Virus record (IMG/VR): IMGVR_UViG_3300021471_000162
Origin: a virus
Direction: 5' to 3' (one strand)
DNA: 34,070 bases
This document shows positions 6,221 to 30,904 of this stretch, one piece after another; the first letter of the stretch is position 1, and every line of letters starts with the position of its first letter. The notes beneath the pieces were generated by a model. It had not been told where the DNA came from. It searched no databases and saw only the letters and a program-made list of their open reading frames with translations. A program made the translations under genes and the position numbers.

Positions 6221-6313
6221 GATTCAACGCCCTCCTATGGCATCTGTGCCAGATCCCATCCAATCCATCCGTCCGTGTTCCAACTGTGTGATTCTGTGTA
6301 CATGGTCATTCAA

Positions 6314-6499
6314 TCAATCCTCCTCGTTTTCGTCATGTATTTCAATCCAGTTCTTCCGAAACCGTTTATAGTGGCAATAATAGAGCTCAGGATTTCCTTC
6401 ATAGACATATTGAATATTGAAAAAAATTTTTTTTCGCACTCTACAAATATATCCCGTGTGTACATTCCTGTACTTCTTCCCGATTTCAATTGACGACAT
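6314..6499 (-). CDS. Small hypothetical protein
   Basis: IEIGKKYRN...YICRV beta-rich pattern. Confidence 0.6.
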   Translation of the reverse strand: MSSIEIGKKYRNVHTGYICRVRKKIFFNIQYVYEGNPELYYCHYKRFRKNWIEIHDENEED

Positions 6500-6502
6500 G
6501 AT

Positions 6503-6658
6503 TCAATCTTCCTCGATTTCTGCCATCATAGCGATCACATATCGATACGCCGATAACTGTCCTTCGAGATACTCTCTATGCGGGGGATCTGTGTCGATCG
6601 CATTCTCAAGACTCCGTATTCTCACTTCGATATCTTCACTGAACGTTTTCTTCAACAT
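6503..6658 (-). CDS. Small helical hypothetical protein
   Basis: GGAGGAG RBS before ATG 6658; first ORF after the tRNA-like element. Confidence 0.55.
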   Translation of the reverse strand: MLKKTFSEDIEVRIRSLENAIDTDPPHREYLEGQLSAYRYVIAMMAEIEED

Positions 6659-6675
6659 GGTTTTCTCCTCCATGA

Positions 6676-6728
6676 TACTCCCGGGCGGATTTGAACCGCC
6701 GTCACAGGGTCCAAAGCCCAACGGGAGT
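6676..6728 (-). tRNA. tRNA-Gln(UUG)-like element lacking the D-arm (truncated tRNA or attP candidate)
   Basis: ACTCCCG TT GGG CTTTGGA CCC TGTGAC GGCGG TTCAAAT CCGCC CGGGAGT A: 7-bp acceptor stem, TTG anticodon loop, complete T-arm, no D-arm. Confidence 0.75.
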
Positions 6729-6736
6729 GTGGCAGA

Positions 6737-6889
6737 CGCCGCGATCATGAGGCAATGTGACCGCGGCGACCTCTATGTTGCCCGGCGCAGGAGGGGAGTC
6801 TCAAAGAGGAGAACGGTAGGTGTGTGGGTGGGTGTAACCTGCGCCGAACAATGTACAGCCATCCTGCTGCAAGTGTATGTTTGGCAGCA
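6737..6889 (-). ncRNA. Structured leader upstream of the tRNA-like element
   Basis: Stems 6737-6743/6762-6768, 6783-6791/6838-6846 and 6865-6870/6884-6889; TATA-like TTTATATA just upstream on the minus strand. Confidence 0.4.
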
Positions 6890-6947
6890 CTCCTATATAA
6901 ATGTTGTGGCAGTAACCTATAAGTGTGATGAGAACCAATCATCCAAC

Positions 6948-7079
6948 ATGGTACAAATAAGTGTACGTCCGAAAACGAAGCAAAAGCTCCTGGAAATCCA
7001 GGAGCGTGATGAGCAGACATCGATGGATGGAGTGATACGGTATCTTCTGTTCAAGGCAGGAGAGGAGCGAGACTCATGA
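6948..7079 (+). CDS. Small ribbon-helix-helix-like regulator
   Basis: MVQISVRPKTKQKLLEIQERDEQTSMDGVIRYLL has the RHH pattern; sits at a divergent promoter. Confidence 0.65.
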   Translation: MVQISVRPKTKQKLLEIQERDEQTSMDGVIRYLLFKAGEERDS

Positions 7080-7261
7080 GAATCACCACAGGCGAGGGGC
7101 TCTCTCTCATAACTGGTGTATCTGACAATGATAAACTCGAAACCGTCCGAACTGCCGCGGTGTGTTTTGAACCGGAGTGCGACGAAGACGCGCGAGAGCT
7201 GATAGCGTTCATCAAACGATGTAGGGGCGATCGTGACATGGGAAGAGCAGATCACACATAA
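7076..7261 (+). CDS. Small hypothetical protein
   Basis: ATGA overlap with upstream gene. Confidence 0.5.
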   Translation: MRITTGEGLSLITGVSDNDKLETVRTAAVCFEPECDEDARELIAFIKRCRGDRDMGRADHT

Positions 7262-7301
7262 TCGATATCTGCTAGAAAAATGAGGTGCCGGAGGTTAATC
7301 A

Positions 7302-30049: not shown

Positions 30050-30362
30050 CTGCCACACCCTGCATCCGTCTGGATGTATTCCGGATCGTTGCCTCGCATA
30101 CACCGCTCGCTTTTGCGATATCACACTGTGTCCAAGAGGGTATACCGTCTTCGCGGTATAGACTACAGACACGACTCGTACACCATACTGCCGCAGCAGC
30201 CACAGATCGGTTTGTGGCTGATCCTATCCTATGATCCGGAACGATAGACATTACGGTATCAACAATATGTCGCGCGTCATGCTCCAGGTCGTCTTCAAGT
30301 AGCGCAGTCACGATCTGGCTGACATGTTCCTCGATTGATTTTTGTGGTTTGTATGCCATCAC
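30033..30362 (-). CDS. Mini-TFB: single C-terminal cyclin repeat of TFIIB
   Basis: SVAAAAVW...WTQCDIAKASGVCEATIRN matches TFB repeat 2 (AAAAxY...TQxEIAxxxGVTEVTIRN). Confidence 0.8.
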   Translation of the reverse strand: MMAYKPQKSIEEHVSQIVTALLEDDLEHDARHIVDTVMSIVPDHRIGSATNRSVAAAAVWCTSRVCSLYREDGIPSWTQCDIAKASGVCEATIRNTSRRMQGVADEREL

Positions 30363-30904
30363 ACAACCTCTTTCTCTCTCATTACCTCGCTCATCTCTGC
30401 GCGGCTTGGGGTTGCATAATGTTCCTGGATCACACGGATCGTGTCGCCGGTGAGTTCCGCAACCTGCTCTGGTGTCCAGCCTGCGTGCTGACAGAACTTC
30501 ACACAGGTCGAGCGCAACGCGTGGAATGGTCTGCGCGGGATGCCGGCTTTGATGCAGAGACGCTGTAGTTTACGGTAGGCAGTACTCCCAGAGAAGGCAA
30601 ACAGCATCTTCTGTTTCTTTGGAAGCGTGGCGATGTACTTCCGCATCAATTGTGTCATGTTCGCTCCGAGCGGGACTGTTCTGATCCGGTTCTTCTTCTT
30701 CTCGAAGTAAGTCATGCTCGCTTCATCGAGATTGATGTCAGCGATGCGTATATTCACGATGTCTTCACGCCTCAAGCCGAACGCAACACCCATCTTCAAG
30801 AGAAGTTCATCTTCGAGTGTGCCGGTGACCTGAAGCAGCTTTCCGAATTCTTTGTGTGTCAGGGCGAACTGCCCTGTTGTGTATGAACTATTAGGGTTCT
30901 GCAT
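30359..30904 (-). CDS. int: Minimal tyrosine recombinase/integrase
   Basis: GLRREDI (R), KKKNR (K), HALR (H-x-x-R), EHY (Y); 181 aa, no N-terminal binding domain. Confidence 0.88.
   Translation of the reverse strand: MQNPNSSYTTGQFALTHKEFGKLLQVTGTLEDELLLKMGVAFGLRREDIVNIRIADINLDEASMTYFEKKKNRIRTVPLGANMTQLMRKYIATLPKKQKMLFAFSGSTAYRKLQRLCIKAGIPRRPFHALRSTCVKFCQHAGWTPEQVAELTGDTIRVIQEHYATPSRAEMSEVMREKEVV

Follow-up and report, generated by a model that had tools for sequence, protein, structure and literature searches.

RESULTS

Organization of the locus

The DNA analysed in this study is a viral stretch of 34,070 nucleotides (IMG/VR record IMGVR_UViG_3300021471_000162), hereafter the window, whose ends overlap by 127 bp and which is therefore a complete circle. 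Its genes include those for a DNA methylase, an ERCC4 nuclease, a tyrosine recombinase and a tail-fibre-like protein; the best named relative of the last comes from Methanosarcina virus MetMV. The public runs that contain the window are hydrothermal-vent and marine-sediment metagenomes, with no RNA run listed among them; the RNA run X21 gave no contigs on this stretch, and tRNAs are nowhere mentioned in the paper describing vent ANME-1 viruses. On the minus strand of the region under study, a TATA-like box, a leader, a 53-nt element resembling tRNA-Gln(UUG), a ribosome-binding site (RBS) and a 51-aa ORF for which no Pfam family was found follow one another (Table 1).

Table 1. Position of the tRNA-Gln remnant and of the features related to it in the window
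Feature	Position	Strand	Evidence and remarks
51-aa ORF, function unassigned, first gene past the tRNA	6503..6658	-	Homologues 78-100% identical; 51 aa in independent assemblies
Ribosome-binding site of the downstream ORF	6665..6671	-	Sequence; conserved with the ATG at 6658
Remnant of virus-encoded tRNA-Gln(UUG) gene, 53 nt	6676..6728	-	Sequence; Rfam RF00005; orthologous full-length genes
Deletion junction, 20 nt missing between these bases	6718..6719	-	Alignment with L025, run X2 contig and 12 deleted contigs
Conserved 121-nt leader, between TATA-like box and tRNA	6729..6849	-	13 haplotypes, no indels, 97% mean column identity
Lineage-specific insertion of ~24 nt, first small hairpin at about 6870-6855	6850..6873	-	Alignments, fold
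TATA-like box, TTTATATA	6894..6901	-	Sequence; conserved in all contigs sharing the upstream context
Divergent 43-aa ORF, far side of the intergenic region	6948..7079	+	ORF; start region conserved; no Pfam family found
Tyrosine recombinase	30359..30904	-	PF00589, E=9.6e-15; ~10 kb away around the circle

Every part that the original prediction had described in the 53-nt element, namely a perfect 7-bp acceptor stem, a CTTTGGA anticodon loop, a T-arm, and TT in the place of the D-arm, is seen in the sequence. Read along the minus strand from 6728 to 6676, the 7-nt 5' acceptor strand (6728-6722) and the TT (6721-6720) are followed by a 3-bp stem with the 7-nt loop CTTTGGA (anticodon TTG; 6719-6707), a 4-nt variable loop and a 5-bp T-stem with a TTCAAAT loop; the 3' acceptor strand (6683-6677) is the perfect complement of the 5' strand, and the discriminator A stands at 6676. 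In tRNA terms, the element retains the acceptor stem, nt 8-9, three of the five anticodon-stem pairs with their loop, the variable loop, the T-arm and the discriminator. It does not have four arms, the D-arm (with G18-G19 for the elbow) and nt 26-28 being absent.

The Rfam tRNA model (RF00005) aligns with the whole of positions 6676-6728, covering model positions 1-71, and gives 25.8 bits (E=0.0043, search of 601 nt); the D and anticodon arms are collapsed in this alignment. This score falls under the gathering cut-off of 29 bits, and no Rfam match at gathering threshold was obtained anywhere in the window. ARAGORN, one of the checks that the original prediction had proposed, was run and called zero tRNAs across the whole window; neither its standard nor its intron or metazoan-mitochondrial mode returned a tRNA at the position of the remnant. 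Searches for other Rfam families in 6400-7000, and at E<=1 in the window and the relatives L026 and L062, found only tRNA, and no DNA match to 6400-7300 was found in the phage collection.

A single 20-nt deletion separates the remnant from intact viral tRNA genes

The 20 nt that are missing at the junction (nt 10-29 of the tRNA) comprise the D-stem, the D-loop, nt 26 and the first two nucleotides of the anticodon stem; one G can be placed on either side of the boundary, and the microhomology is only 1 nt. At the corresponding site, ARAGORN calls a canonical 73-nt tRNA-Gln(ttg) in the relatives L025/L026 and L034. The 48-kb viral contig whose homologue of the 51-aa ORF is 76-78% identical has this canonical gene, with 57.8 bits, at the matching site, and no second tRNA was found in it. 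The window and the L025 locus align at 88% identity with a single clean 20-column gap. Moreover, a 511-nt contig of run X2 matches window positions 6300-6744 with 1 mismatch over ~445 aligned nt and has 20 nt inserted behind 6718; therefore, the intact gene exists on the window's own background. Runs X3 and X4 hold the deleted form. Lying at the same position and between the same flanks as the tRNA-Gln(ttg) genes of L025/L034 and run X2, and differing from them by one 20-nt gap, the remnant is more than a chance resemblance, since it corresponds, base by base, to an orthologous full-length tRNA-Gln gene of its relatives. The derivation from tRNA-Gln(UUG) that had been proposed is thus borne out. 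In Rfam scores, full copies reach 57.8 bits (L026) and 51.9 bits (L062), and deleted copies 25.8 and 25.9 bits.

The C2:G71 pair of the acceptor stem, to which the original prediction had drawn attention, is common to all 29 related viral contigs (29/29), and an acceptor stem of this type was not found in 185,579 species genomes under the pattern scanned. Among intact genes, variation falls at positions 16, 26, 44-47, 57 and 73, which are sites variable among functional tRNAs, and L040 has compensating changes in the T-stem. This pattern of variation, together with the compensation in L040, suggests that the intact gene behaves as a working tRNA. Two intact alleles, L054 and L064, contain stem mismatches, and in view of these the constraint on the viral tRNA may be relaxed in general. 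As an argument for the tRNA, the glutamine codons in 34 ORFs (111 CAA vs 127 CAG) are uninformative without the host.

Two copies of the tRNA-Gln, 3.7 kb apart, were observed in L062, a 21.8-kb relative. The intact copy (L062:2098-2170; 51.9 bits) has T instead of G at position 37 of the anticodon loop and starts 2 nt behind another tRNA-like RNA; the D-arm-deleted copy (L062:5912-5964; 25.9 bits) is at the usual site.

Both alleles circulate in the same samples

The contig set consisted of every contig with the small ORF and of the hits of a pattern scan of JGI metagenomes in which any gap length between acceptor strand and anticodon loop was accepted. It contains 29 distinct contigs with the viral tRNA-Gln, all from vent or sediment metagenomes, of which 17 are intact and 12 have the identical 20-nt deletion (boundaries identical in 12/12). 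Conservation of the D-arm loss in relatives, by which the original prediction was to be judged, is accordingly found in part: the same loss is present in 12 contigs, and the other 17 retain the arm. The deleted allele is carried by at least five haplotypes (window type, L035, L056, L062 and L069). Differences among them concern the variable loop, T-loop position 57 and the leader, and extend even to the downstream gene. At least 7 samples yielded near-identical deleted genomes on assembly, and both alleles are present in samples Ga0190315, Ga0190345, Ga0190346 and Ga0190347. The chance that the gap is an artefact of assembly or sequencing is practically nil, since it appears in independent assemblies (JGI, an ENA k141 contig, Logan unitigs), in at least 10 samples and in five haplotypes.

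An A allele 17 nt upstream of the tRNA is found in all deleted haplotypes and in only some of the intact ones. The deleted L035 is 98.5% identical to the intact L034 over 2.5 kb, whereas its identity to the window is ~90%. The 1,648 nt upstream of its tRNA contain 6 substitutions; 4 of them are found within 68 nt of the deletion, each with the window-type base. The clustering of these bases looks like the footprint of a short conversion tract that brought the deletion into L035. Because of the 1-nt microhomology, the linked A allele and the window-like patch in L035, recurrent independent deletion was rejected as the main explanation, and we favour one origin of the deletion followed by spread among lineages by short-patch recombination. 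The single origin is suggested by linkage in a small, non-independent sample, and the spread by recombination fits a virus group that is visibly mosaic around the tRNA gene.

Predicted folding of the two alleles

Folding predictions give the 53-mer a rod as MFE structure, at -26.8 kcal/mol vs -22.3 kcal/mol for the tRNA-like form; the rod is predicted to be more stable than the tRNA-like alternative by 2.8-4.5 kcal/mol. In it, the anticodon loop pairs with the T-arm and the anticodon-stem probability is ~0. The predicted probability of the T-stem is 0.00-0.01 in the 53-mer vs 0.99-1.0 in the intact cloverleaf, and the acceptor stem is kept in the predicted ensemble of the 53-mer with a probability of 0.8-1.0. 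RNase P senses the G19-C56 elbow between D-loop and T-loop (PMC10941002), and the D-loop bases that build this elbow are absent from the remnant. Judging from these models, it is very unlikely that the remnant would decode, and its efficient processing is doubtful. Against the folding argument, it is to be noted that minihelix-like hairpins can be substrates for tRNA-processing enzymes.

These predictions bear on the view that the 53-nt RNA is active itself, either as a decoy for an anticodon nuclease or for GluRS/GatDE, or as a D-armless decoding tRNA. The anticodon loop and the acceptor stem are intact in all deleted haplotypes, and the virus-specific C2:G71 acceptor pair is retained. D-armless tRNAs do function in metazoan mitochondria, for example human mt-tRNA-Ser(AGY) and those of nematodes and mites (PMC9427863, PMC2797822), and the remnant is similar to them in having an acceptor stem, an anticodon arm, a T-arm and a short connector for the D-arm. 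However, the mitochondrial tRNAs are of long standing and fixed, and synthetases and EF-Tu have become adapted to them, whereas the remnant is without two anticodon-stem pairs, is predicted to be misfolded rather than to form stable helices, and is polymorphic with the intact gene on near-identical backgrounds. The co-adapted factors are needed by such tRNAs, and none is encoded in the window. The anticodon loop would moreover be buried in a helix in the predicted fold, and the intact and deleted alleles swap freely, which suggests that the difference between them matters little. We therefore regard an activity of the 53-nt RNA itself as extremely improbable.

The conserved leader and the downstream reading frame

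The location of the element at the end of a structured leader, which had been proposed, agrees with the finding of a conserved 121-nt leader in 13 haplotypes. Helix 1 (6846-6838 with 6791-6783) encloses a pyrimidine-rich 46-nt loop, and helix 2 is a hairpin (6767-6758 with 6747-6738); both are kept in the 13 haplotypes, with 99.6% of cells paired. Covariation in the leader is not significant: only 1 pair has changed at both of its positions, and in 165 of 500 shuffles the score is as high or higher. An RNA structure of the leader is compatible with the data, the helices themselves being predicted ones. The identity of the leader, 97%, is to be set against the 88-92% found between the flanking DNA of L034/L035 and the window. 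Of the three further hairpins placed upstream by the original prediction, two are in the conserved leader (helix 1 and helix 2) and stand; the third belongs to the lineage-specific 24-nt insertion, which is missing from the L025/L034/L035/L056/L062 type.

The TATA-like box upstream and the RBS and ORF directly downstream, which had also been noted, were confirmed by sequence and by conservation in relatives. The box is likely to be the promoter of the leader-tRNA-ORF unit, as far as its sequence goes, and because it is near-palindromic its direction is one that we infer. The RBS begins 5 nt past the tRNA discriminator, which leaves no room for a separate promoter between tRNA and ORF; because of this spacing, the tRNA and the early genes would almost certainly form one transcript. 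No tRNA was found upstream of the homologues of the 51-aa ORF that lie in other contexts (L027-L029). An ATG at 6673 was rejected as start of the 51-aa ORF, since it is not conserved in the relatives and the ATG at 6658 is. A longer frame of 81 aa (6748-6503, minus strand) is opened by the deletion together with a window-type ATG at 6748 and spans the remnant into the 51-aa ORF. It was rejected as a useful N-terminal extension, since the ATG at 6748 is absent from the deleted haplotypes L035, L056 and L062; it is probably spurious, an annotation trap.

In the uncut precursor, the RBS is predicted (in silico and post hoc) to be bound by an invariant stretch of pyrimidines in the leader, and to be free after a cut at the tRNA 3' end. 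This RBS-complementary run lies in the loop of helix 1 (window 6783-6846, especially 6805-6811) beside a hypervariable patch of 4-6 nt, in which the window type repeats the 5' acceptor strand of the tRNA. On the modelled pairing, excision of an intact tRNA could double as mRNA maturation.

It is conceivable that the D-arm-less remnant, having lost decoding alone, still serves as an RNA processing signal, its ends being cut by RNase P and tRNase Z of the host so that the leader is parted from the early-gene mRNA. Precedents for such a signal are MALAT1-mascRNA and the gammaherpesvirus-68 tRNA-miRNA units, in which a tRNA-like fold forms the 3' or 5' end of an adjacent RNA. Those units are eukaryotic or from an animal virus and have conserved cloverleaf-like folds, whereas the remnant is a recent deletion derivative. 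Another parallel in arrangement is offered by the t-elements of Haloferax volcanii (PMC4326828), tRNA-shaped elements between two functional RNAs whose cutting would set the ends of the neighbours; they are real RNase P/tRNase Z signals that were cleaved in experiment, whereas the remnant is known from its sequence and its T-arm is predicted to be lost. The placement of the remnant is that of such a signal, between the 121-nt leader and an RBS that starts 5 nt beyond the discriminator and is predicted to be masked by the leader until the 3' end is cut; the acceptor stem is intact in the predicted ensemble, and the deleted allele is frequent with its remaining stems undamaged. However, the T-arm is predicted not to form, and the elbow to which RNase P responds is missing (PMC10941002). 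Conservation of the leader is just as high in relatives whose tRNA is not followed by an RBS (the D2 contexts), and the pairing of the RBS is a prediction made post hoc. Taken together, a retained role as processing signal appears unlikely.

Module junctions and the relation to attachment sites

The ends of the tRNA are module junctions in the relatives, where four upstream and five downstream contexts are found. Contigs of runs X2 and X3 depart from the window sequence at 6675-6680, the tRNA 3' end, into other viral contexts; in run X4, a contig jumps from one end of window 6360-6677 to the other, 316 nt being skipped with 27 other letters between, by which the 51-aa ORF is lost. In L057, a DpdA-family protein (7-deazapurine in DNA, PF23859; L057:2331-3188, minus strand) is encoded directly upstream of the tRNA-Gln.

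In L068, a 65-aa ORF and a 211-aa tyrosine integrase (PF00589; L068:5095-5730, minus strand) lie within ~290 nt of an intact tRNA-Gln, and beyond the integrase there is an IS605-type TnpB (OrfB_IS605, Cas12f1-like TNB; L068:3167-4504, minus strand). The integrase-TnpB group looks like a mobile module parked beside the viral tRNA. In L051 and L057, an exact 22-nt repeat of the tRNA 3' end, from T-loop to discriminator (L051:3658-3679; L057:735-756, reverse strand), is present between viral genes 1.2-1.5 kb downstream of the intact tRNA; it cuts an AAA_28 P-loop gene, which is truncated after EWIWEHQ, and is followed by a small-ORF and integrase module as in L068. This repeat may be the scar of an att-like site, or else what remains of a second tRNA copy.

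The question arises whether it is for recombination at the DNA level that the tRNA-Gln sequence has been retained, as either an attP for a host tRNA-Gln or an att-like site for module exchange between co-infecting viruses, for which the 3' half would matter and the D-arm would be dispensable. The varied contexts at the tRNA ends, the integrase ~290 nt downstream of the tRNA in L068 and the 22-nt repeats in L051 and L057 are in line with this, and haloarchaeal proviruses commonly integrate into tRNA genes (PMC8651126). As in an attP of the SSV type or of other tyrosine-integrase elements, a tRNA 3' half is present, and relatives show the repeat and a neighbouring integrase; here, by contrast, a full functional-looking tRNA is ancestral. 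The exact 25-mer of T-arm and acceptor had 0 matches in viral contigs and 0 in cellular genome contigs (185,579 species). A looser pattern (UUG loop, T-loop and acceptor 3' end) likewise had 0 matches in the 185,579 species genomes, with the proviso that these patterns fix the T-loop and the acceptor and that the host may be missing from the collection. The integrase of the window was confirmed to lie, as predicted, ~10 kb from the element by circular distance and is 26% identical to the L068 enzyme, so that an integrase adjacent to the tRNA is found only in L068 and is a different one. The flanks are viral in all loci looked at, and neither integrated copies nor virus-host junctions were found among the 31 viral-tRNA loci. 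Moreover, the intact gene varies like a working tRNA, including the compensating T-stem changes, and the 22-nt repeat could equally be the stump of a second tRNA copy left by an ordinary deletion, two copies being possible as L062 shows. The attP that had been suggested was therefore not borne out, with no identical cellular tRNA half found under these patterns, no adjacent integrase in this genome and no virus-host junction at 31 loci, and we consider it very improbable that the sequence is kept as a recombination site.

Other tRNA-like elements in relatives

Two further tRNA-like elements were observed in relatives, and neither is present in the window. The first, of ~155 nt, lies behind its own TATA-like box (L026:1525-1680, L062:1941-2096) and has a tRNA-type 7-bp acceptor stem, a T-arm, a discriminator A, a D-arm-like hairpin and a long extra hairpin, in which two pairs have changed in a compensatory way between L026 and L062. 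It was not called by ARAGORN in standard and intron modes and had no Rfam match at E<=1; only a dubious 233-nt low-threshold ARAGORN call overlaps it. Judged by its sequence, it may represent a tRNA with an intron or one of class II, or else a tRNA-like RNA that is new. The second (L026:1368-1467, L062:1758-1857, L027:about 2668-2726) has a T-arm and acceptor-like ends, and in its central hairpin L026 and L027 differ by a compensatory change; a low-threshold ARAGORN run, rich in false positives, assigned it the stop-codon-reading anticodons tca (L026) and taa (L062).

DISCUSSION

We conclude that the 53-nt element is most likely a tolerated loss-of-function deletion allele of an accessory virus-encoded tRNA-Gln(UUG), situated in a leader-tRNA-mRNA unit. 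Since an unbroken copy of the gene occupies the corresponding position in sister viruses, a tolerated broken allele is more likely than a purpose-built mimic or an integration site. The original prediction of an evolved tRNA mimic was not supported: the element is explained by one 20-bp deletion in a canonical viral tRNA gene, both alleles of which co-circulate, and what was found comes close to the decaying tRNA that the same prediction had named as its own refutation.

In the scheme that we propose, the TATA-like box, the 121-nt leader, the tRNA, the RBS 5 nt further on, the 51-aa ORF and further early genes would make up one transcription unit. From intact alleles, RNase P and tRNase Z of the host would excise the tRNA, thereby parting the leader from the mRNA and freeing the RBS. 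The deletion would have arisen once and been passed between lineages by short-patch recombination. In the window allele, the elbow between D-loop and T-loop could not form and the RNA would refold into a rod, which would neither decode nor be processed efficiently; this folding argument for the loss of function is a thermodynamic prediction. The virus would tolerate the loss as the tRNA is dispensable, and the remnant would now be part of the 5' untranslated region of the early operon. The dispensability of the tRNA is indicated by the fact that the window is a complete circle without another tRNA and that near-identical deleted genomes are present in at least 7 samples.

It is well documented that archaeal tailed viruses encode tRNAs, HGTV-1 having 36 tRNA genes (PMC8651126). 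The intact alleles of the relatives are, like the tRNA genes of HGTV-1, Hafunaviridae and Druskaviridae (PMC8651126, PMC13532342), ordinary cloverleaf accessory genes, with 57.8 bits; the differences are that there is here a single tRNA in a small (34-48 kb), non-tailed-looking virus of vent sediment, that it stands in a leader-tRNA-mRNA unit, and that the window allele is uncalled. Viral tRNAs being already well known, the locus adds to them a natural knock-out allele and not a new kind of element. The remnant also resembles the decaying tRNA pseudogenes of phages, in which a dispensable gene is inactivated by a deletion within it, some close relatives having the intact form and others the broken one; in contrast to these, the broken allele is frequent here, has moved between lineages ~10% apart and has kept its remaining stems intact.

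These latter features count against a dead allele, at least with regard to its commonness, its presence on at least five haplotypes and the perfection of all remaining stems, which a long-dead pseudogene would not guarantee. It is possible, if decidedly unlikely, that the D-arm-less allele is instead kept by selection as a balanced polymorphism beside the intact gene, being moved by short-patch recombination, for a role of the RNA or for escape from a defence. If this were so, the remnant might, for example, alter whether or where the leader is cut from the early-gene mRNA, the RBS staying masked; alternatively, the virus might thereby evade a host defence by which the viral tRNA or the D-arm DNA is sensed or targeted.

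With the loss-of-function allele as the preferred explanation, an apparently exotic tRNA mimic becomes a simpler and checkable natural knock-out, circulating alongside its intact counterpart in the same set of deep-sea samples. For annotation, the lesson is that the remnant escapes tRNA finders while a spurious 81-aa ORF crosses it. With regard to viral evolution, the locus indicates that a small deletion can travel between virus lineages by very short recombination tracts, and that a conserved 73-bp tRNA gene serves as a junction for module exchange in mosaic genomes. The allele pair is also a natural experiment on what a virus-encoded tRNA is worth to an archaeal virus, whose host is probably an uncultured methane-cycling archaeon, and it can reveal whether, in archaeal viruses, the ends of adjacent RNAs are shaped by the excision of a tRNA.
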